Source: Alphaproteobacteria bacterium (GTDB taxonomy: Bacteria > Pseudomonadota > Alphaproteobacteria > UBA6615). From it: a stretch of 64,000 nucleotides of DNA. The stretch is from NCBI GenBank assembly GCA_049601915.1, contig JBMYRB010000002.1, positions 90,553 through 154,552 of the forward strand. The letters run 5' to 3'. Under the pieces are notes generated by a model. It had not been told where the DNA came from, made no database searches, and worked only from the letters and a program-made list of their open reading frames with translations. A program made the translations under genes and the position numbers. Positions 4,057-18,248 of the stretch are shown piece by piece (positions within the stretch are counted from its first letter, which is position 1; every line of letters starts with the position of its first letter).

Positions 4057-5136
4057 CTAGTCCACCGTATAGCGTTTCACCGCGTCGGCGCTGAAGATCA
4101 TGCCGTGACCGGGCCGGTCGGGCGGTGCCATATGTCCGTCTGTAATCACCGGCGGATGTTCCCACAGATCGTCCGGTGATCCGGCGAGTACTTCGACGAG
4201 TGCGGCGTTGGGGATGGCCGCCAGGACCTGGATCGACAATTCCGGCACCAGATGTGGCGCGATCTTCACGTCATAGGCGGCCGCGAGATGGGAAATCTTC
4301 ATCATCTCGCTGAATCCGCCGCAGCGGTGAATGTCCGGATTGAGGAATTGCGCCGCGCGCGCCTCGATCAGGTCACGAAAGCCGTAGCGTGTGTACTCAT
4401 TCTCTCCGGTCGCGACCGGTATTGAGATTCCCGCCGCTACATCGGCGCATTGCTGGATGTTGTCGGCCAGCACCGGTTCCTCGTACCAGCACAGCCCGAA
4501 CTCCTCGAGCATGCGGCCGACACGGATGTTGGTGGCGACATCCCAGCGTTGATTGGCATCGACCAGGATTTCCATATCGAAGCCGAGCGCCTCGCGGACA
4601 CGCCGAACCCGGTCGATATTCTCCGCCACGTTGGGCAGGCCGAGTTTGAATTTGTAGTGACGACAGCCTTGCGCGCGAAAGGCTTCGGCCTCAGCGACGA
4701 TTTCGTCGACCGAGTAGGACAGAAATCCGCCGCTGCCATAGACCGGTACACGTTCATTATGTGCGCCGAGCAGGTGCCATACGGGGCGGTTTACCGATTT
4801 GCCGAGGATATCCCACAGGCCGATGTCGATCGCGCTCATGGCGTAGACGGGGATGCCTTTCTTGCGCAGGCCGCGATCGTTCTCATACATGGCCTGCCAG
4901 ATGGCACCGATCTGCAGCGGGTCCGCGCCGATCACCAGTGGCAGGATGCTGTCTTCCAGATAGGCCTTGACCGCGCTCGCCCCCATGCCGCCGACCAGCA
5001 TCGTGTAGCCTAGGCCCTCAATGCCCTCGTCGGTTTCGATACGGGTGACGATATAGGTGTTGGCGGCATAGTAGGTATTGACCGGTGGGCCGTTCGGGAC
5101 CGCCATCGTCGAAATGGTCACGTTCGTGATCTTCAT
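4057..5136 (-). CDS. Enolase-superfamily enzyme (mandelate racemase / muconate-lactonizing / acid-sugar dehydratase family)
   Basis: Motifs VDANQRWD, EEP and FDMEILVDAN. Start chosen at MKITNV (ATG 5136) because a GGAGA RBS precedes it. The longer ORF back to 5367 has an R-rich, non-protein-like N-terminus. Confidence 0.75.
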   Translation of the reverse strand: MKITNVTISTMAVPNGPPVNTYYAANTYIVTRIETDEGIEGLGYTMLVGGMGASAVKAYLEDSILPLVIGADPLQIGAIWQAMYENDRGLRKKGIPVYAMSAIDIGLWDILGKSVNRPVWHLLGAHNERVPVYGSGGFLSYSVDEIVAEAEAFRAQGCRHYKFKLGLPNVAENIDRVRRVREALGFDMEILVDANQRWDVATNIRVGRMLEEFGLCWYEEPVLADNIQQCADVAAGISIPVATGENEYTRYGFRDLIEARAAQFLNPDIHRCGGFSEMMKISHLAAAYDVKIAPHLVPELSIQVLAAIPNAALVEVLAGSPDDLWEHPPVITDGHMAPPDRPGHGMIFSADAVKRYTVD

Positions 5137-5286
5137 CTGGTGATCTCCCCATGCGATCGGCCGAATATCCTTGTGCCGATTACGATAGCTGGCGATGTGG
5201 GTCACACCAAGATCATCTTGCGCCGATGTTGTATAGGATATGGAACAGCGGCGAGGGTTTGCGGCCGATCGAAAGGTAGAACAACA

Positions 5287-5490
5287 ATGACCAAGGCGCG
5301 GGCCCGGCAGCGGGCGAAAGCAAAAGCGGGCCAGAAGGCCAAGAAACGAGCGGCGCAAGCCGATCAATCGAACTCGAACACCCCACCGGGCCGGTTCGAT
5401 CCGGGGACGAGTTCGATCACCAAGCTGGGTGGTGGTGCGAACAATTCGAACTTTGCCGAAGCGCGGCGCGGTGCCGCCAGATCTCGCTAG
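5287..5490 (+). CDS. Hypothetical small basic Lys/Ala-rich protein (67 aa)
   Basis: An ATG-initiated ORF with high GC3, lying between divergent genes. The product MTKARARQRAKAKAGQKAKKRAAQ... is low-complexity. No strong RBS. Confidence 0.25.
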   Translation: MTKARARQRAKAKAGQKAKKRAAQADQSNSNTPPGRFDPGTSSITKLGGGANNSNFAEARRGAARSR

Positions 5491-5604
5491 TGAGTCACCC
5501 GACAGTCACGACGCGTTGAAGCCCGCATTGTTTTCCTTCCGGTCGGGAATGCCCATATGAAGGGCGTGCTTCCGCTTCGCCCTTGGTTACCAGAGGACCG
5601 ACCC

Positions 5605-7683
5605 ATGTCCGCGACCCCGACATCTGACATCAACACTGCGCTTGTCCATTGGGAGGGCCCGATGGGGCTGCCCGAATTTGCGCGGATCGAGGATCGTGAT
5701 TTCAAGACCGCTTTTGCTGCGGCCCTGCAGGCGCATCTGGCCGAGATCGATGAGATTGCGAATGATCCGGCCAAGCCGACATTCGTGAACACGATCGTAG
5801 CGCTTGAGCGCGCGGGCGAGATGTACGGCCGTGTGTCGGGTGTGTTCTGGAATCTGTCGGGCGCGAACACAAACGAAACGCTGCAGGCCTTGGAACGCAA
5901 ATTGTCGCCGGAACTGTCACGGCATCAATCCAGGATCATGATGAATGCCGGGTTGTTTGCACGCATCGATGCGCTTTATCAGGATCGCGAAAACCTCGAC
6001 CTAGATGCCGAGGCTGCGCTTGTGCTGGAGCTGACATGGAAAGCCTTCGTCCGCTCCGGTGCTAAACTCGACCCGGCGAACCAGAAGCATCTCGCAGAAA
6101 TCGACGAGCGGCTCGCGGGGCTGGGAACAGCCTTTGCGCAAAACGTACTGGCCGATGAGCGTGACTATGCGCTGGTGTTGGGGCCCGATGACGACCTTGC
6201 GGGCTTGCCGGACTTCCTGATCTCCGGCATGGCCGCCGCAGCCGAGGAACGCGGATACGAAGGCAAGTATGCGGTGACCCTGTCCCGCTCGATCATCGAA
6301 CCGTTCCTGACGTTCTCGACCCGTCGGGATTTGCGCGAGCAGGCCTTCCGGGCCTGGGGTGCGCGTGGCGAAGGACGGGGAGAACGGGACAACCGTCCCA
6401 TCGTCGCGGAGATGGTCAGATTGAGGGCCGAGAAGGCGGCGCTTCTGGGCTATGCGACCTTCGCCCATTTCAAGCTCGACAACACGATGGCCAAGACCCC
6501 CGAGGCTGTGCGCGAACTTCTCGAAACGGTTTGGGAGAAGGCACGCACCCGCGCGTCTGAGGAGGCCGACGACCTGTCGGCCTTGATCGCGGGGGAGGGC
6601 CACAATCATGGCGTGGCCCCTTGGGATTGGCGGCACTATGCCGAGAAACAACGCGCGGCGCGGTTCGACCTCAATGAGGCTGAGATCAAACCCTATCTCC
6701 AGCTTGAACGGATGATCGAGGCGGCGTTCGATACGGCGAACAGATTGTTCGGAATAAGCTTTCGCCAGCATCCGGAGATCGAGGCCTATCATCCCGACGT
6801 TCGGGTTTTTGAGGTACTCGACGCAGATGGTGCGCGGATCGCGGTGTTTCTCGCCGATTATTTCGCCCGCCCGTCCAAGCGTTCGGGTGCCTGGATGACG
6901 TCATTTCAGGATCAACATCGGCTTGCCGGTGAAGCCGGTGATCACGACCAGATTTCCATCGTCGTGAATGTGATGAACTTCGCCAAGGCGGCGGCCGGTG
7001 CGCCGGTCTTGATCACCATGGATGATGCGCGGACACTGTTTCACGAGTTCGGGCACGCTCTGCACGGTATGCTGTCCGACGTCACCTATCCCTCGATCTC
7101 CGGCACGTCGGTGAGCCGCGATTTCGTAGAGTTGCCGTCCCAGCTTTACGAGCATTGGCTGACCGTGCCCGATGTGCTGCAGCGCTTCGCGGTGCATTAC
7201 GAGACCGGTGAACCCATGCCCACAGCGCTATTGGACAAACTTCGCGCGGCGGAGAAGTTCAACAAGGGCTTCGCCAATGTGGAGTTCACCTCGTCGGCGT
7301 TGGTCGACATGGCATTCCACGCCCTCGACCCGACGCAAGCCACGGATGTCGACCCGGTCGCGTTCCAGGCCGAGATCCTGGCCGGCCTCGATATGCCAGA
7401 GGCGATCGTCATGCGTCACGCGACACCCCACTTCGCCCATGTGTTCTCCGGCGACGGCTACTCCGCGGGTTACTATTCCTACATGTGGTCGGGTGTTCTC
7501 GACGCCGATGCTTTCGAAGCCTTCACCGAGGCAGGCGATGCGTTCGACCCGGCGACGGCCCGCAAGCTGCATGAGCATATATACGCGTCGGGCGGGTCCA
7601 TGGACCCAGAGGACGCCTATCTGGCTTTCCGCGGCAAGCTGCCGACGGCCGATGCTTTGCTTGCGAAGGAAGGCCTGGTCTAG
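5605..7683 (+). CDS. dcp: M3-family peptidyl-dipeptidase Dcp / oligopeptidase A
   Basis: About 690 aa with the HEFGHALHG zinc motif and thimet/oligopeptidase architecture. Start at MSATPTS; the ORF is open from 5557. Confidence 0.85.
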   Translation: MSATPTSDINTALVHWEGPMGLPEFARIEDRDFKTAFAAALQAHLAEIDEIANDPAKPTFVNTIVALERAGEMYGRVSGVFWNLSGANTNETLQALERKLSPELSRHQSRIMMNAGLFARIDALYQDRENLDLDAEAALVLELTWKAFVRSGAKLDPANQKHLAEIDERLAGLGTAFAQNVLADERDYALVLGPDDDLAGLPDFLISGMAAAAEERGYEGKYAVTLSRSIIEPFLTFSTRRDLREQAFRAWGARGEGRGERDNRPIVAEMVRLRAEKAALLGYATFAHFKLDNTMAKTPEAVRELLETVWEKARTRASEEADDLSALIAGEGHNHGVAPWDWRHYAEKQRAARFDLNEAEIKPYLQLERMIEAAFDTANRLFGISFRQHPEIEAYHPDVRVFEVLDADGARIAVFLADYFARPSKRSGAWMTSFQDQHRLAGEAGDHDQISIVVNVMNFAKAAAGAPVLITMDDARTLFHEFGHALHGMLSDVTYPSISGTSVSRDFVELPSQLYEHWLTVPDVLQRFAVHYETGEPMPTALLDKLRAAEKFNKGFANVEFTSSALVDMAFHALDPTQATDVDPVAFQAEILAGLDMPEAIVMRHATPHFAHVFSGDGYSAGYYSYMWSGVLDADAFEAFTEAGDAFDPATARKLHEHIYASGGSMDPEDAYLAFRGKLPTADALLAKEGLV

Positions 7684-7773
7684 GCGGTTTCCACTAGGGG
7701 ATAGCCGATCGATATGCGCGGGCGTTGCCGCACGTCGCCGCATGATGAATATTCATGCCGTGCCAGAGGGAAT

Positions 7774-8844
7774 GTGAATGGGGGAAACGACGTGGCGAAG
7801 AGCTATTCAATTTGCATGCTGCCCGGGGATGGTATCGGGCCCGAGGTCGTCGATTGCGCGCGCAGGGTGCTCGATGCGCTGACGGCGGGTGGCGGTCCGG
7901 CTTTCGCGTATGACGTCCAGCCGGCCGGTCATGGCACTTATCTCGACTGCGGAAACTCGATCCCGGCCGCATCGATTGCGGCGGCGAAGGCGGCTGACGC
8001 CGTGTTCCTCGGTGCGATGGATGTCGCAGAAATTCCGCCTGGTGCGGGTGACCCGCTGCTGGATCTGCGCGGTGAACTGGAAGTGGAAGCCAGTGTCCGG
8101 CCGTCCCGAACGCTCGCCGGCATCGCGTCTCCGGCCGCCGATATCGACTGTGTTGTCGTCCGTGAGATGACGGAGGGGCTTTACTCCCAGATCGAGTATC
8201 AGGTCGGTGCGGACACGGCATGCGCGGTTCGCGTGATTACGCGCGGTGCCTCCACGAAAACCGCACGCATGGCCTTCGAGCAAGCGACCGCGCGACAGCG
8301 CGCACGCGCTGCTGATGGGTCCGACAAACCGGCGAGGGTGACCGCGGTGCACAAGGTCGGCGTCCTCAAACTCACGGATGGCTTGTTCCTGGAGGCCTGT
8401 GCCGAAGTGGCGAGGGACTATCCGGATATCGAATACGAGAGCAGAAATATCGATGCCTGTGCCATGGAGATGATGCGCGAACCGGACCATTTCGACGTCA
8501 TCCTGGCGACCAACGCCTTTGGTGACATCCTGTCCGATATTGCAGCGGGTCTGGCCGCGGGCCTAGGCCTTGCGGCCTCGGCATGTATCGGCGCGCGCTG
8601 GGCCTATTTCGAGCCGGTCCATGGCACCGCGCCGGATATCGCGGGCCAAGGAGTCGCAAACCCCTGCGCGACGATCCTCAGCGCGGCGATGATGCTGCGG
8701 TATCTGGGCGAGGAAGTAAGCGCCGATATAGTCGAGAATGCCGTCTATTCGGTGCTCGCGGCAGGTGCCGTCCGCACCGGCGACCTCGGCGGTTTGGCGA
8801 ACAGCACCGAGATGACCGACGCAGTTATCCAAGCGATGAAATAG
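7774..8844 (+). CDS. Isocitrate/isopropylmalate dehydrogenase family protein (LeuB/tartrate-dehydrogenase-like)
   Basis: Motifs [25 protein letters not shown] and [13 protein letters not shown] at 7774 is preceded by a GAGGG RBS; a GTG at 7792 is an alternative. Confidence 0.75.
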
Positions 8845-9336
8845 TTAAGACAGGACCCGCGCCAGCCCCGGCAGAAAAACGATCAGCAGCAGCCGTGCGA
8901 TGTCGGCGGCGAAGAAGGGCACGATACCCTTGAAGATCGCGCCGATCGGTACTTCGGGCGGCATCGATTTGATCACGAACACGTTCAGCCCGATGGGCGG
9001 GGTGATCAGGCTGATCTCGACGACCATCGCCATGACGATGCCGAACCAGATTAGGTCGAAGCCCAGGGCGTCCAACACGGGCACGAAAATCGGCACGGTG
9101 AGGAAGATCATCGCCAGTCCCTCGATGATCGTTCCCAGCAGGATGTAGATCAGCAGAATAACGAGGATCACCGTGAGCGGCTCGATGTTCAGGGTCCGGA
9201 TGAAATCCACGATCGCGTTGGGCAGGCCGGCGACGTTGACGAAGTTGTTCAGGATCAGCGCGCCGAAGGCGATGGTGAAAATCATCGCGATGGTCTCGGC
9301 CGCCTCGGCCAGGGCGGAGAAGATGCGCAGGTTCAT
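8845..9336 (-). pseudogene. TRAP transporter large permease (DctM) C-terminal fragment (about 163 aa), N-terminal two-thirds absent
   Basis: Only the C-terminal 163 aa of the 441-aa ORF look like DctM: hydrophobic TM helices and ...LITPPIGLNVFV.... The upstream part of the ORF is R/S-rich non-protein sequence and overlaps an opposite-strand fragment. Confidence 0.5.
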
Positions 9337-9363
9337 GCGCCGGCGCGCGCGGCGTTTCGTGAC

Positions 9364-9783
9364 ATGGGGCCCCGTGTTTCGGAATTCCCGACGACGGAAG
9401 CGACGGCCAAGGCTGCACGCGATGCGGGCGAGCATACGGTGCTCGGTGCGCCCAATGTTGTGCGTGGCGGCATCCATAACGGCGCCATGGATGCCACGCG
9501 GGCGGTCCTCGATGGCCTGTGTTCGGTATTGACGTCGGACTACTACTATCCCGCGACCCTGATGGCACCGTTCTGCCTTGCCACGGACCATGGCCTGTCG
9601 ATCGCCGAGACCTGGCCCCTGGTTTCCGCCAATCCGGCGGAGGCCGCGGGACTGGATGATCGTGATGTGCTTGAACCCGGCCGCCGCGCAGATATGCTGC
9701 TGGTCGATGCGTCCGACCCGAGGGCGCCATGCCCGGTGTGCTGTTTCGTGGCGGGGCGAAAGTTTTTCGACCGGCGAGCGTGA
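9364..9783 (+). pseudogene. Amidohydrolase-superfamily C-terminal fragment (PhnM/dihydroorotase-like, about 139 aa)
   Basis: Contains ...SDYYYPATL... and a C-terminal ...GRRADMLLVD... motif typical of amidohydrolase C-termini. The N-terminal roughly 250 aa that would carry the metal-binding His residues are missing. Confidence 0.45.
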
Positions 9784-9793
9784 ACTTCGCCGG

Positions 9794-10675
9794 CTAGGCC
9801 GCGAGGCCGAGGATCTCCCGCGCCTGGGCGGCCGTGGCGACATCTTCACCCAGGGACTGCACGATCCCGACCGCATGCTCGACAAGTTCGGCGTTGCCCG
9901 CGGCGAGCTTGCCCCGCGAAATGTAGAGATTGTCCTCAAGGCCCACGCGGCAATGGCCGCCCAGCTTGGTGGCCGTCTCGACCATCGGCATCTCGTGACG
10001 CGAGATGCCGAAGGACGCCCACACGGCATTCTCGGGTGCCAAGTCCCGCATGAGCGCCATGGCCTCGCGTGAGGCGGGGGCCCCCCAGGAAATGCCGAGG
10101 CAAAACTGAAACAAGGGGATCGGGTCGGTGATATCGCCGTCTGCGCACATCTGTGCGGCCAGGCGCACATGGCCGGTATCGAACACTTCCAGTTCGGGTT
10201 TGACCCCGGCTGCCTGGATCATCCGCGCCATGTCGCGCAGGATCGCGGGCGAGTTGACCATGTTCCATTCGCCGAAATTCATCGAGGCGACGTCGAGCGA
10301 GCAGATATCCGGCTTGAGCTTTACGACATGTTCCACCCGTCGTTCGGCGGTGAACATTCCGCTTGTCGCCCCCGCCGTCATCGGGTCGGCGGGGTCGGGC
10401 ACGAATCGGCCGCCGGGACCGGTCGTGAGGTTGATGATGACCGGCGAACCGGAATCGCGAATGCGCTTCACGACCGCCTCGTAATATTCGAGCTTGGTAC
10501 TCGCCTTGCCGGTGTTCGGGTTGCGTACATGGATATGCGCGATCGCCGCACCGGCCTTGTTGGCGGCGATGGCCTCGTTGGCGATTTCCTCGGGCGTGAC
10601 GGGGACCGCCGGGTTCATGGCGGTGGAATCCGCCGAGCCGGTGACGGCGCAGGCGATGATGACGGGACGGGCCAT
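9794..10675 (-). CDS. kce: 3-keto-5-aminohexanoate cleavage enzyme family (BKACE/DUF849)
   Basis: N-terminal IIACAVTGS...TPEEIA...AAIAHIHVRNP is the BKACE signature. A GAGAGGAAA RBS lies upstream of the ATG. Confidence 0.8.
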   Translation of the reverse strand: MARPVIIACAVTGSADSTAMNPAVPVTPEEIANEAIAANKAGAAIAHIHVRNPNTGKASTKLEYYEAVVKRIRDSGSPVIINLTTGPGGRFVPDPADPMTAGATSGMFTAERRVEHVVKLKPDICSLDVASMNFGEWNMVNSPAILRDMARMIQAAGVKPELEVFDTGHVRLAAQMCADGDITDPIPLFQFCLGISWGAPASREAMALMRDLAPENAVWASFGISRHEMPMVETATKLGGHCRVGLEDNLYISRGKLAAGNAELVEHAVGIVQSLGEDVATAAQAREILGLAA

Positions 10676-10736
10676 GGGTATTTCCTCTCGGGAATTGAGT
10701 GTTAGTGATGAATCACCCTAAATGGGTCAAGGTCTT

Positions 10737-11636
10737 TCAACTTTTGAAACAGTGCTCTCGATGCCACTCAAGAAAGTGTGGATGGGGGCGATCCACTGAA
10801 CGGACTAGTGGTGTCGCACGGCCATTTGAGTTGATGAAGGATTCTACGCTGGCCCTGTCATTCACTTGTCGGGAAATCAGAATCTCGAGGTCGTTCGACA
10901 AACCGATTAGGCCCCGGTCGAACATCCAGTGTGCGGTGCCGGACAATGCTATTCCATTGTGAACGATGTCCGGACCATTGTACTCCACGGGCTTAATGTG
11001 GGCAGCATTCACCTCGGCGCCTCCACCACCGTTGATGAGTTTGAGCCCGGTAAAAGCGCAGCGCTCGTCATATGCGCGAAGCACAACTCGACGAAATGCA
11101 CGATCACGTAGCGGTCGGCTTGCGAGCTGATCGACGCGCTGACGTTCAGTCTCAAGCGTGAACGGGGATTGTTGTTCCTCCGCACCAGGAGCCGAGTCTT
11201 CGAGATCCTGACGCGGTAATACTTGATCGGATTGGTCAAGTCCGCGATCCACAATACGCATGAAATCTGCGGATGATACAGGTCGGACTGCGGCTTGCGC
11301 GCGACCAGATAGTTTACCGTTTTCATTAAGGAGCCCGCGTTCGACCGGAGCGATTCCATCGTTGAAGGGGACTGGATTGGGGAAGACGAGATAGCTACCC
11401 GGCGCTATGTGAGCAAGAAACCTTCTGGGTTCTGATATGTCGGGAGTAATCATCTCAACGCGTGCGATCGCGAAATAGCCACGTGTCTCCCTTACCTTCT
11501 TCGGTTCGAGGTACACAATCCGATCGCCGACTGCGGTATTGGCGCGGTCGAGATACTGTTTCGGAAATTGATACTGCTCTGACGGGCTGTCGTCGTAGAT
11601 CAAGTCTGGATGAAGCATGAATACACAATGGCCCAT
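10737..11636 (-). CDS. HNH endonuclease (HNH_2-type motif) with an uncharacterised N-terminal domain of about 170 aa. It sits in a lower-GC islet next to tRNA-Ser.
   Basis: The C-terminal CAFTG...AAHIKP...HNGIAL...HWMFDRG is an HNH motif. The N-terminal domain has no obvious catalytic motif and may be DNA-binding or modification-sensing. GC content is visibly lower than in the flanking genes. Confidence 0.7.
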   Translation of the reverse strand: MGHCVFMLHPDLIYDDSPSEQYQFPKQYLDRANTAVGDRIVYLEPKKVRETRGYFAIARVEMITPDISEPRRFLAHIAPGSYLVFPNPVPFNDGIAPVERGLLNENGKLSGRAQAAVRPVSSADFMRIVDRGLDQSDQVLPRQDLEDSAPGAEEQQSPFTLETERQRVDQLASRPLRDRAFRRVVLRAYDERCAFTGLKLINGGGGAEVNAAHIKPVEYNGPDIVHNGIALSGTAHWMFDRGLIGLSNDLEILISRQVNDRASVESFINSNGRATPLVRSVDRPHPHFLEWHREHCFKS

Positions 11637-11846
11637 GCAAATACCCTAACCCGCTCGCGTTGATGGCGTGTGCTCCGCTGTTGGTGATTGGGAGCGCGAT
11701 GGTGGCGTCGCCTCGTGGAGGTTTTGTCGAGAGCATACCGTATCAGAGCAAAAACCAAACCTCGCAAACAGTGGGCAACGTTTGTCAGTGCGGGCTCACG
11801 TAGCAACTTTGAGTGAATGAAAGCGCTAGCGCAAAACACGGAAAAA

Positions 11847-11936
11847 TGGCGGAGGGAGAGAGATTCGAACTCTCGGAACGCTTACACGCTCAACAGTTTT
11901 CGAGACTGCCCCGTTCAACCACTCCGGCACCCCTCC
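11847..11936 (-). tRNA. tRNA-Ser (anticodon CGA), 90 nt, CCA encoded
   Basis: Manual fold: acceptor GGAGGGG/TCCCTCC; 3-bp D-stem with a GAGTGGTTGAA loop; anticodon stem-loop GCAGT-CTCGAAA-ACTGT; long variable arm; T-arm GAGAG-TTCGAAT-CTCTC; discriminator G. Confidence 0.85.
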
Positions 11937-12076
11937 GCCGATATTCGGGTATCGTATGCGATATCCTGAACGGACCCGTGATATGTACGGGCGCACGGGT
12001 TCTACCCCACCCGGCGACAAACCTGCAACCCGCTGTGGGTGGGCGATTTTTCGGCCTTTTCGCACACGTTGGGCGG

Positions 12077-12104
12077 TTGACACGCGGCTCTGGCGGCGTA
12101 TAGT
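12077..12104 (+). promoter_or_regulatory. Sigma70-like promoter for rplU-rpmA
   Basis: TTGACA (12077-12082), a 16-nt spacer, then TATAGT (12099-12104), about 120 nt upstream of rplU. Confidence 0.5.
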
Positions 12105-12227
12105 CCGCCCGCATCGGCTGGACCGACTGATTTATTCGCGGCCCGCCTTGTTTTTGCTGGAACATTCGGCACTCGTGAGACCGCGCTTGGGCGTGGCACG
12201 ATGGCCACGACATAACGGATGCGGAAC

Positions 12228-12779
12228 ATGTACGCAGTCATTCAAACCGGCGGGAAGCAGTATCGCGTCGCCAATGGCGATGTGATCACCGTCGAGAAGC
12301 TCGAAGGCGAAGCGGGAAGCACCCTGGAGATTTCGCCGGTGCTGATGCTCGACGACGGCAAGGAAACCCAGGTCGGCACGCCGATCGTCGAGGGTGCCGC
12401 CGTCACTGCCGAGCTGGTCGAGCAGACCCGGGGCAAGAAGATCGTTGTCTTCAAGAAGAAGCGCCGCCAGGGCTATCAGCGCACGCATGGCCATCGCCAG
12501 GATCAGACGGTTCTGCGCATCGTCGACGTAACCGGCAAGGCGAAGGCGCCGGCGAAGAAGGCCGCGAAGGCTGCGGAACCGAAGACCAATGACGCGCCGG
12601 CCGAGGCGGCACCTGCCGCGGAGGCCAAGCCCGCCGCGAAGAAGCCCGCCGCCAAGAAACCTGTTGCGAAGAAGCCGGCCGCCAAGAAGGCCGCTTCGAG
12701 CACGACCAAGAAACCTGCGGCCAAGAAACCTGCCGCGAAGAAACCTGCAGCCAAGAAACCGGCTGCGGACAAGGAGTAA
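12228..12779 (+). CDS. rplU: 50S ribosomal protein L21 (bL21) with a Lys/Ala/Pro-rich C-terminal extension
   Basis: [14 protein letters not shown]... is canonical bL21. The C-terminal (KKPAAKKPA)n repeats form an extension. Confidence 0.95.
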
Positions 12780-12785
12780 TCAGAC

Positions 12786-13043
12786 ATGGCGCATAAAAAA
12801 GCAGGCGGTAGTTCACGCAATGGTCGCGATTCAGCGGGCCGGCGCCTCGGCGTCAAGAAATATGGCGGCGAAGCGGTCATTCCGGGCAACATCATCATCC
12901 GCCAGCGCGGTACCAAGTTTCATCCCGGCGAGAATGTCGGCATTGGCAAGGACCACACCATCTTCGCGATGAGCGAAGGCAAGGTGCAGTTCACCCGTAA
13001 GCGTGGCGGCCGTAACTTCGTATCTGTGGTTCCGCCGGCCTAA
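12786..13043 (+). CDS. rpmA: 50S ribosomal protein L27 (bL27)
   Basis: [16 protein letters not shown]... is canonical bL27. Confidence 0.95.
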
Positions 13044-15325
<2,282 letters not shown>

Positions 15326-15335
15326 GTGTTTCGAG

Positions 15336-16241
15336 ATGGACGTTCCTCGCGCCGAAAGCCCCATCACATATGCCGTCGTCCTGGTGGCCGCGCTGATCGC
15401 GGTTGCCCATGCCGCGATCTTCGTTCGTATGGCGGATGCGGATCCGCTTGTGACGGCCGCCTACCGGATGCTGATCGCGTCGGCTGTGTTGTTGCCGTTC
15501 GCGGCCGTGACGGCGCGACGGGAAATATGCTGGCTCAACAAGCGAGAATGGAAGTTGATCGCCGGCGGGGCGGTGTTTCTGGCGCTTCATTTCGCCACCT
15601 GGATTGCTTCCCTCGACTTCACCTCGATCGCCAATTCCGTTGTGCTGGTCGCTCTGACACCGGTCTGGCTGGCCGTCTGGGCCGTGGTGGCGCTGCGTCA
15701 GCCCCCGGGCCTGCGCACATGGCTGGCCGTCGGGCTCGCGCTGGCGGGTGGTATCATCATGGGGTGGGGCAGCGCCCGGGTCGGGACGGAGACATTGTTC
15801 GGCGACGGTCTAGCACTTTTGGGCGGTTTGCTTTTCGTTGGTTTTCTGCTGCTGGCCGAGGCTGCCCGGAGGACGATCGGCATCTTCGCATTCGTCACCT
15901 TGGTCTATAGCGGCGCGGCGATCATGCTCTGGGTGGCGGTGCTTGCACTGGACCTGCCGCTTGTCGGGTTGTCTGTGGAGACCTATCTGGCTTTCATCGG
16001 GTTGGGCCTAGTCAGCCAGATCATCGGGCATACGGGTTTCAACTGGGCGGTGCGCGCGATCTCACCAATGGTGCTGGCACTTCTGTTTCTCACCGAGCCG
16101 CTTTTGAGCACCGCGCTGGGCTGGTTTTACTTTGGCGAAGGATTTGCCAGGGAAACGGCGATCGGCGGGGTGTTGGTACTCGCGGCCATCTATCTGGGCG
16201 TGCGGGCGAGCGACATCCGGTTGACGGAGCAAACGGGATGA
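15336..16241 (+). CDS. EamA/DMT-family transporter
   Basis: A 10-TM hydrophobic profile with two EamA repeats. Confidence 0.7.
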
Positions 16242-16302
16242 AATTTGCGGGCAAATTGACTATCGTCGCCCGCCAGGCCGCAGAAACGGTCGGAGAAGAG
16301 AC

Positions 16303-17592
16303 ATGACGGCTGCACATGACATCTCGGCGGATACCGCCGACATCGCTGCGACGATGCAAGCTATCGGCGCGGCGGCGAAGGCGGCTGCGCTCGAACTGGC
16401 GACCGCCACACCGGAATCGAAGAATGCCGCGTTGCACGCTGCCGCGGATGCCATCCGCACCCGGAAGGATGAAATCCTCGCGGCGAACGCCAATGATGTC
16501 GCGCGCGCAGAAAGCAACGGGGTGAAGGGCTCCTTCCTCGATCGTCTGGTCCTGAACGACGACCGGGTTGAGGGGATGGCCAACGGCCTTGAAGAAGTCG
16601 CCGCACTGGACGAGCCTATCGGTACCGTGCTGGCGGAGTGGGGCCGGCCGAACGGACTGCGGATTGCGCGGGTGCGCGTGCCGTTGGGCGTGATCGGCGT
16701 GATTTATGAATCGCGCCCGAACGTGACTGCGGATGCCGGCGGGCTGTGCCTCAAAGCCGGGAACGCGGCGGTATTGCGCGGCGGCTCTGAGAGTTTTGAA
16801 TCCTCGAACGTCATTCTGTCCTGCCTGCAGGACGGTCTTCGCGCGGCAGGGTTGCCCGAGGCAGCGATTCAGGCGCCCCCGACGACCGATCGTGCGGCTG
16901 TCGGTGCGATGATGACCATGGTCGACCATATCGATGTGATCGTGCCGCGCGGCGGCAAATCACTGATCGAACGGGTGCAGACCGAGAGTCGTATCCCGGT
17001 GTTCGCCCACCTCGAAGGGCTCTGCCATACCTACGTGCATGGTGCCGCTGATCCGCAAATGGCGCGGGATATCGTGCTCAACGCCAAAATGCGCCGGACC
17101 GGGATCTGCGGTGCGACCGAGACCGTGTTGATAGACCGGTCGGTCGCGTCGGACATGCTGGGACCCATCGTCGATGACCTTGCGAGTGCGGGGTGTGAAG
17201 TGCGCGGCGATGATGCGGCGCAAGCCATCGATGATCGCATCGTCCCGGCCGATGATGAAGACTGGAATACCGAGTATCTCGACGCGATTGTCTCGGTCCG
17301 GGTGGTCGATGGCGTCGAGGCTGCCATCGATCATGTGAACAGCTATGGCTCGAATCACACCGATGCAATCGTGACATCGGATGATGATGTGGCCGAGCGT
17401 TTCCTGGCACGCATCGATAGCGGTATCGTACTGCACAACGCGTCGACGCAGTTCGCCGACGGTGGCGAGTTCGGCATGGGTGCCGAAATCGGGATATCGA
17501 CGGGCAAAATGCATGCGCGCGGCCCGGTCGGTGCCGAGCAGTTGACCAGCTACAAGTATATGGTGCGCGGCGCCGGGCAAACCCGACCCTGA
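16303..17592 (+). CDS. proA: Gamma-glutamyl phosphate reductase
   Basis: Aldehyde-dehydrogenase fold with ProA motifs ([10 protein letters not shown], catalytic Cys region). Confidence 0.9.
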
Positions 17593-17597
17593 CCCGG

Positions 17598-18248
17598 ATG
17601 ACGACTTCGGGGAATCAGGTGCTCGCGTCCGGCGTCTTTCGCCATCGCGGACGGCGAATCGGACTGTTGGGCGGGTCGTTCAATCCTGCGCATGACGGGC
17701 ATCGTCATATCAGCCAACTGGCGCTAACCAGACTGGGCCTTGATGAGGTCTGGTGGCTGGTCTCGCCACAGAACCCGCTCAAGTCCGAAGACGGGATGGC
17801 GACCTTCGAGTCGCGGCTGAAATCCGCCAACGAGGTCGCCCGGGACGGGCGAATCCGAGTGTCTGCGATCGAGGCGGAGCTCGGCACACGCTATACGGCC
17901 GATACCCTCGATGCCCTGCAAAACCGGTATCCGGCGGCGCGATTCGTCTGGTTGATGGGGGCCGATAATCTGATCCAGATATCGCGGTGGCGCGCATGGA
18001 AACAAATATTTAACAAGGTTCCCATTGCCGTCTTCGCGCGTGATTCATATGATTCGAAGGCGTTGTCGGGGCTCGCGGCAGTTCGTTTTCGCCGCGCACG
18101 ACTGCCGGAACGTGCAGCGCAGTTGCTGCCAGATACCGCGCCACCTGCCTGGGTGTTCTTGCGTATAAAGCCGCACCCGGCAACGGCGACGGAGATACGC
18201 AGAAGTGGTGTTTGGCCTGCGGCTGACGTCGCTGATACAGACGAGTGA
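17598..18248 (+). CDS. nadD: Nicotinate-nucleotide adenylyltransferase
   Basis: GLLGGSFNPAHDGH, the (H/T)xGH nucleotidyltransferase motif. Confidence 0.85.
   Translation: MTTSGNQVLASGVFRHRGRRIGLLGGSFNPAHDGHRHISQLALTRLGLDEVWWLVSPQNPLKSEDGMATFESRLKSANEVARDGRIRVSAIEAELGTRYTADTLDALQNRYPAARFVWLMGADNLIQISRWRAWKQIFNKVPIAVFARDSYDSKALSGLAAVRFRRARLPERAAQLLPDTAPPAWVFLRIKPHPATATEIRRSGVWPAADVADTDE

Follow-up and report, generated by a model that had tools for sequence, protein, structure and literature searches.

What does the single gene between a serine tRNA gene and kce encode in this alphaproteobacterial contig, and how did it come to lie there? The question was addressed in a window of 64,000 nt, the whole stretch of contig JBMYRB010000002.1 that was analysed and to which all coordinates refer. 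In this window, an islet of about 1168 bp (10677..11844) separates tRNA-Ser(CGA) from kce. Only one open reading frame (ORF) was found within the islet. It occupies 10737..11636 on the minus strand, stop codon included, and encodes a protein of 299 aa. This protein is probably a solitary modification-dependent (type IV) restriction endonuclease of the VcaM4I kind, made of an N-terminal EVE-like domain, a linker and a C-terminal HNH_2 nuclease domain. The reading was adopted because this reader-linker-HNH layout copies that of the characterised EVE-HNH enzyme VcaM4I.

The nuclease half was recognised by sequence comparison. It covers residues 173-299 (10740..11120, minus strand), as defined by matches to Pfam HNH_2, NCBIfam PT-DNA_restrict and PDB entries. 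A preliminary description of the locus had announced a 299-aa protein with a C-terminal HNH_2 motif. The ORF indeed contains CAFTG...AAHIKP...HNGIAL...HWMFDRG, and Pfam HNH_2 matches residues 193-246 (E 3.2e-9). C193, H213, N227 and H236 are invariant in family alignments of 97 and 16 sequences, and the predicted catalytic His-Asn-His (H213, N227, H236) is intact. The best curated family match was NCBIfam NF045808 (PT-DNA_restrict, 'phosphorothioated DNA-binding restriction endonuclease'; E 6.8e-29), limited to the C-terminal half, with residues 173-298 aligned to profile positions 157-284. Sequence matches of the HNH domain in the PDB were VcaM4I (6yex) and TagI (6ghs), and the archaeal-virus enzyme HHPV4I was also matched. 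As judged from these similarities, the relatives of the HNH half whose function is known are all modification-dependent restriction enzymes.

The N-terminal half has no match in Pfam, NCBIfam or PADLOC, all of which match the HNH half only. The reader was identified by fold comparison alone, sequence profiles having failed. An AlphaFold2 model (monomer, built on 97 homologues) was confident over residues 1-133 (11238..11636, minus strand), with block-mean values of the predicted local distance difference test (pLDDT) of 77-93. These residues form a putative modified-base reader, an EVE-like domain of the PUA superfamily. They are followed by a poorly conserved linker (residues 134-172; 11121..11237, minus strand), defined from pLDDT and from the nonsynonymous substitution rate (dN). 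In the model, pLDDT is below 50 at residues 136-162, a part predicted to be disordered, and a helix starts at residue 162. An uncharacterised N-terminal domain of about 170 aa had been described earlier; the domain exists, and its folded part is the shorter stretch 1-133. The best PDB match of the model found with Foldseek was VcaM4I (E 2.8e-5). In the comparison of the N-terminal fold with known structures, values were 12.3 for PH1033 (1wmm), 10.6 for a Leishmania protein (2ar1), 10.5 for Rpa0253 (2gbs), 10.1 for both the S. marinus McrB N-terminal domain (6n0s) and human THYN1 on 5-methylcytosine (5mC) DNA (5j3e), 10.0 for VcaM4I (6yex), 8.5-9.5 for YTH domains, 8.9 for ASCH (5guq) and 5.4 for TagI (6ghs). 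The domain has a PUA-superfamily fold (EVE, SRA, YTH or ASCH), in agreement with the PUA-like or similar modified-base reader suggested before. By sequence it falls outside Pfam EVE (PF01878), of which weak matches were obtained in three of 16 distant relatives (best E 0.01).

A search with the N-terminal domain only returned 537 cluster representatives, and the architecture was judged from the best 150. The proteins among these were either fragmentary or about 300 aa long (388 at most), and no other architecture was seen. The C-terminal HNH region is present in all 15 of the aligned full-length distant members. A fold search among viral models (BFVD) gave nothing significant.

Conserved residues of the N-terminal domain were then compared with the VcaM4I pocket. 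This pocket consists of Q10, T11, E15, W22 and P24, with W82 and Y130 for stacking and Q128 as the wedge or intercalating residue (PMC7897488). In the family studied here, D11, Y14, D16, P18, Y22, F24 and P25, in the loop between the first two strands, are invariant or near-invariant, and Y14, Y22, F24, Y28, Y54 and Y82 are invariant or nearly so. Q114, part of GRAQAAVR, is invariant and shortly precedes the last strand, as does Q128 in VcaM4I; the +2 position is an invariant Ala (A116) in place of a Tyr. Position by position, the comparison suggests a pocket of related design and differing detail. It is tentatively possible that the N-terminal domain represents an unrecognised clade of EVE-like readers with a differently built pocket, in which an invariant Ala takes the place of the stacking Tyr and the N-terminal loop is invariant and rich in Asp and Tyr. 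Such a reader might recognise a modification other than 5mC or 5-hydroxymethylcytosine (5hmC), e.g. a bulky hypermodified base from phages of Alphaproteobacteria, or else a base modified in RNA. If true, a new reader specificity could explain the strong conservation and the wide spread of the gene in Alphaproteobacteria, a group in which CcrM-type adenine methylation is general. The protein of the window carries R39 (codon 11520-11522) where at least 90% of the close relatives have a Trp (GDWIVY). A pocket defect caused by R39 was considered and set aside, as distant relatives carry H, L or F at this position.

The protein has the architecture of the PUA-reader/HNH class: the reader fold, the HNH residues and no adjacent methyltransferase gene. 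No methyltransferase was found next to the gene, either in the window or in the six annotated contexts inspected (of 160 loci). The type IV-like sensor-HNH reading put forward in the preliminary description is supported by the PUA-superfamily fold and by the HNH relatives, all modification-dependent enzymes. Modification-dependent cleavage is predicted from this architecture, as are binding of a modified base, nuclease activity and a role in defence. By analogy with homologues, a base carrying a chemical modification in incoming DNA, such as that of phages or plasmids, would be flipped into the pocket of the EVE-like domain, and the DNA would then be cut near this site by the HNH domains, probably as a dimer. 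Host DNA would escape through absence of the modification, and the enzyme would have no partner methyltransferase. The gene is an accessory, horizontally moving unit, presumably with its own short promoter, and is placed here in a variable slot 3' of tRNA-Ser(CGA). Its accessory status is supported by the empty sites of relatives, a GC content below that of the flanks, the plasmid copies, the location between Fic and TrbB/TrbE genes and the enrichment at tRNA 3' flanks (see below).

The islet differs clearly from its surroundings in composition. Its limits were set from the breaks in blastn homology with related genomes (see below) and from the 1157-bp stretch of lowest guanine + cytosine (GC) content. 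GC is 53.3% in 10690-11846, which is the minimum of the window (mean 61.7%, standard deviation 1.9 for 1157-bp windows); only 0.01% of 1157-bp windows are as low. At third codon positions, GC is 53% in the HNH gene vs 83% in kce. On one side, the islet begins 2 nt beyond the 3' end of the host gene tRNA-Ser(CGA) (11847..11936, minus strand; ARAGORN; Rfam RF00005, 51.1 bits). This 3' end points toward the HNH gene and is separated from its ATG by a spacer of 210 nt (11637..11846, minus strand), counted as part of the islet, which presumably holds the gene's own promoter. On the opposite side lies the host gene kce (BKACE family; 9794..10675, minus strand; Pfam BKACE, E 1.3e-96), and an Iso_dh gene is found on this side too. 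Beyond the tRNA come rplU, rpmA and obg (Pfam), then an ORF read as proB. The called genes on both sides are housekeeping or metabolic genes. The low-GC single-gene stretch, its abutment on the tRNA 3' end with kce on the other side and the lack of an integrase or direct repeat of the tRNA end, all points of the preliminary description, were confirmed. GC and codon usage, which it had proposed to check, deviate strongly from those of the host. No integrase gene is present in the islet. A search for repeats of the tRNA 3' end was negative within 10500-12100 and, with blastn-short, in 4737-17636 (the gene plus 6 kb on either side). Neither attachment-site or target-site duplications nor tRNA fragments were found beside the islet or in 80 related loci. 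Of the features of a tRNA-integrated genomic island, the locus has the position at a tRNA 3' end and empty sites in relatives; it lacks the integrase and the direct repeat. An Rfam scan of the islet gave nothing besides the tRNA. In the neighbouring rplU (12219-12779, plus strand), the L21 product is 186 aa long and carries a long C-terminal Ala/Lys/Pro-rich repeat tail (KPAAKK-like) past the Pfam domain of about 100 aa.

Empty sites were searched for in relatives, which were found through close kce homologues and by inspection of their contigs. Two related marine alphaproteobacterial genomes (L165/L166 and L169/L170) keep the order proB-obg-rpmA-rplU-tRNA-Ser(CGA)-kce without the HNH gene; their kce genes are 82-83% identical in DNA sequence to that of the window (L165-L170). 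In blastn alignments of the window with these contigs, homology runs from 12898 in rplU to 11845, a point 2 nt beyond the 3' end of the tRNA, and restarts at 10676 (L169/L170) or 10687 (L165/L166), at the ribosome-binding site and start of kce. The spacer between tRNA and kce measures 158 bp in L170, 883 bp in L165 and 1168 bp in the window, and the slot is known in at least these three states. No common sequence, HNH remnant or target-site duplication was detected among the spacers of the window and of the empty-site genomes. The 883-bp insert of L165/L166 (4101-5000) contains an ORF of 99 aa with no Pfam match and no similarity to the HNH gene. tRNA-Ser(CGA) also adjoins rplU in L165-L170 and in two further loci (L003, L005). 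In another relative, with a kce 91% identical, a 299-aa HNH_2 gene lies three genes from kce. Because related genomes keep the gene order without the HNH gene, the islet 10677-11844 is a lineage-specific insertion, and the slot that it fills, immediately next to the tRNA on its 3' side, is variable. Strain specificity at the kce/tRNA-Ser junction, which had been proposed as a check, was found in that the gene is missing from this junction in both genomes.

Beyond this locus, homologues are numerous. More than 7000 homologous sequence clusters were obtained; identity is 66-100% in the best 120, most of which are 299 aa long. Genome matches were distributed over Rhodospirillales, Hyphomicrobiales and Sphingomonadales (55-86% identity), and the family, as delineated by sequence, is large and mostly alphaproteobacterial. 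Compared with the closest relative, the ratio of dN to the synonymous rate (dS) is 0.13 overall; the reader has 0.14, the linker 0.19 and the HNH domain 0.10. dN is highest in the linker, and dS is saturated against the other relatives. The protein is under strong purifying selection in all three segments. The GC content of the gene is below that of its flanks in 70 of 80 genome loci, by six points on average. Two diverged copies were observed in Ancylobacter tetraedralis DSM 5895 (L035 and L075) and in two S. meliloti plasmid records (H19 and H20, two places each). Such double copies may reflect different specificities.

The genomic context differs between genera and is conserved within them. 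In six Mesorhizobium loci, the gene is flanked by a patatin-like gene, a gene with a RibD_C domain and efp/epmA. In six other loci, mostly from Bradyrhizobium, it follows guaA. Copies from both genera still have GC and third-position GC well below those of their flanks despite the fixed position; this missing amelioration may be due to recurrent replacement or to selection that keeps the expression of a toxic nuclease low. In five loci of Xanthobacter, Ancylobacter and Aquabacter (about 4700-11100 of these loci), the gene stands between a Fic/DOC gene and type IV secretion genes of the TrbB/TrbE type, and these copies appear to be cargo of a conjugative element. Full-length copies were found on 43 plasmid records (Rhizobium, Sinorhizobium, Agrobacterium, Sphingomonas), and 60 of the 128 matching plasmid records were predicted to be conjugative. 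No full-length copy was found in phage genomes. A promoter-like motif, TTGGCA-N16-CTAnnn, ends 7-8 nt before the ATG in ten of 79 loci (within about 45 nt upstream of it), with no occurrence in the control region. Its position suggests that the mRNA has no leader, or almost none, and that the mobile unit is very compact. Upstream of the window copy (11637-11680), only a -10-like TTAGGG was recognisable by reading the sequence. A conserved non-coding element travelling with the gene was considered and rejected, as only this short motif was found, in a subset of loci.

Several observations weigh against a type IV restriction enzyme. The reader has no sequence-profile match: Pfam EVE does not match the protein even at E <=5, and no PDB chain was matched at E <=10 by a profile of 21 N-terminal family sequences. 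As far as position alone can tell, A116 appears to stand where VcaM4I has its base-stacking Y130, and the pocket may work differently. Model confidence is low in the HNH core (residues 178-226, window 10959-11105; pLDDT <50), although no part of the protein is better conserved; this core may need a metal or a dimer partner to be well modelled. Conservation is unusually high for a predicted defence gene, with 60-86% identity over several alphaproteobacterial orders and saturated dS, and the gene has a fixed position among housekeeping genes within Mesorhizobium and Bradyrhizobium. In the literature searched, neither work on this alphaproteobacterial family nor biochemical or phage-restriction data for it were found. 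Finally, the expected co-occurrence with defence islands did not materialise: the neighbours are housekeeping, conjugative-element or plasmid accessory genes. The preliminary description had named this outcome among those that would refute it. This last point was not counted against the interpretation and fits the enzyme class, because Lutz et al. (2019, PMC6765204) contrast DUF3427 fusion genes, frequent in defence islands, with ORFs of PUA-domain endonucleases.

The same conservation could be that of a cellular nuclease which responds to modified or damaged bases of RNA or DNA and acts, for example, in repair or in RNA or tRNA turnover, not against phages. The spread over several orders, the nearly constant length of about 299 aa and the location among housekeeping genes in several genera fit such a function, and EVE and YTH domains also read modified RNA (YTH complexes with N6-methyladenosine RNA were among the fold matches). 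A gene of this type is not expected to be missing from the same locus in close relatives, to have a systematically foreign GC content, to be carried by conjugative plasmids and a conjugative element or to occur twice in some genomes (L035, L075), and the sequence relatives of its HNH domain are restriction enzymes. A cellular role was rated as unlikely; an RNA target is conceivable.

The position next to a tRNA raises another possibility, that of a selfish, free-standing homing endonuclease whose HNH domain cuts near tRNA genes in naive genomes and which copies itself into the break. tRNA 3' flanks are the usual landing zone of acquired DNA. Upstream sequence sufficed in 134 related loci; in 11 of these, a tRNA is located on the same strand 96-378 nt upstream of the gene (Ser-CGA, Ser-GGA, Ser-GCT, Thr-GGT or Arg-CCT), and three more have a convergent tRNA-Gly(GCC) 155-174 nt downstream. 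Elsewhere in the flanks, tRNAs occur at a background of about 0.3% per 400 bp, and a tRNA on the same strand within 400 nt upstream would be expected in about 0.15% of loci (nominal p ~2e-16, uncorrected for shared ancestry). The gene is enriched at tRNA 3' flanks generally, and not specifically at tRNA-Ser. Targeting of tRNA-Ser had been considered, since tRNA-Ser (three isoacceptors) accounted for every one of the eight tRNAs found adjacent and upstream among the first 60 loci; it was rejected when tRNA-Thr, tRNA-Arg and tRNA-Gly were found in the metagenome sample. This enrichment, together with the single-gene islet, the lack of an integrase or att repeat and a GC content below that of the host, would fit homing. 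Against it stand the diversity of the partners (at least six tRNA identities, Gly-GCC included), the roughly 90% of copies with no tRNA nearby, the lack of conservation of the tRNA-side spacers and the fixed position between housekeeping genes in Mesorhizobium and Bradyrhizobium. Moreover, the N-terminal domain has the fold of a modified-base reader and not of the sequence-specific DNA-binding module expected, and both domains are under strong purifying selection. Homing was considered improbable. The presence of the gene at a tRNA flank without an integrase may be a leftover of larger elements, or recombination between flanking DNA may have brought the gene in.

A phosphorothioate-dependent restriction enzyme of the SprMcrA/ScoMcrA type, in which a sulfur-binding domain (SBD) is joined to HNH, is suggested by NF045808 being the best curated match; membership fails in the N-terminal half, with a score of 100.9 bits vs a cut-off of 180, and there is little chance that the protein belongs to this type. 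A nuclease half or decaying remnant of a classical type II restriction-modification system, to which a weak PADLOC match (PDLC03546 'Type II restriction enzyme', E 1.6e-6) and the name 'restriction endonuclease' in several sources would point, is highly improbable, as this match is limited to the HNH part, no methyltransferase accompanies the gene in the window or the inspected annotated contexts, and purifying selection acts on an intact ORF.

If the type IV reading is correct, a very common alphaproteobacterial gene labelled 'HNH endonuclease' or 'putative restriction endonuclease' encodes a type IV enzyme with a hidden EVE-like reader. The enzyme, of which copies lie on rhizobial and Agrobacterium plasmids, could then influence the passage of DNA into rhizobia and their relatives. 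It would add to the catalogue of modification readers and might serve as a tool enzyme, should its specificity differ from that of the known 5mC/5hmC enzymes. The conceptual gain would be small, PUA-reader/HNH fusions being already an established class; what differs is the divergent reader domain.

Among known systems, the closest parallel in layout is the EVE-HNH group of VcaM4I, TspA15I and CmeDI (PDB 6yex; Lutz et al. 2019, PMC6765204; Pastor et al. 2021, PMC7897488). VcaM4I is organised as 1-147, 148-178 (helical linker) and 179-309 (PMC7897488); the protein of the window is organised as 1-133, linker and 173-299. No sequence similarity is detectable between the two readers (about 10% identity when aligned by structure), the position of Y130 in VcaM4I would be occupied by an invariant Ala (by positional inference only), and the window family is essentially alphaproteobacterial. 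The stand-alone EVE proteins (PH1033/UPF0310, 1wmm; Rpa0253, 2gbs; the Leishmania protein, 2ar1; human THYN1, 5j3e) resemble the putative reader in fold with 8-16% identity, and are single-domain proteins without a nuclease. By curated profile, the closest HNH domain is that of the SBD-HNH phosphorothioate-dependent endonucleases (NF045808; E 6.8e-29, residues 173-298), whose N-terminal sensor has no counterpart by sequence in the protein studied here and whose family cut-off is not reached by the whole-protein score. The SRA-HNH enzyme TagI (6ghs) and HHPV4I have homologous HNH domains and follow the same logic, a PUA-superfamily reader joined to an HNH nuclease.

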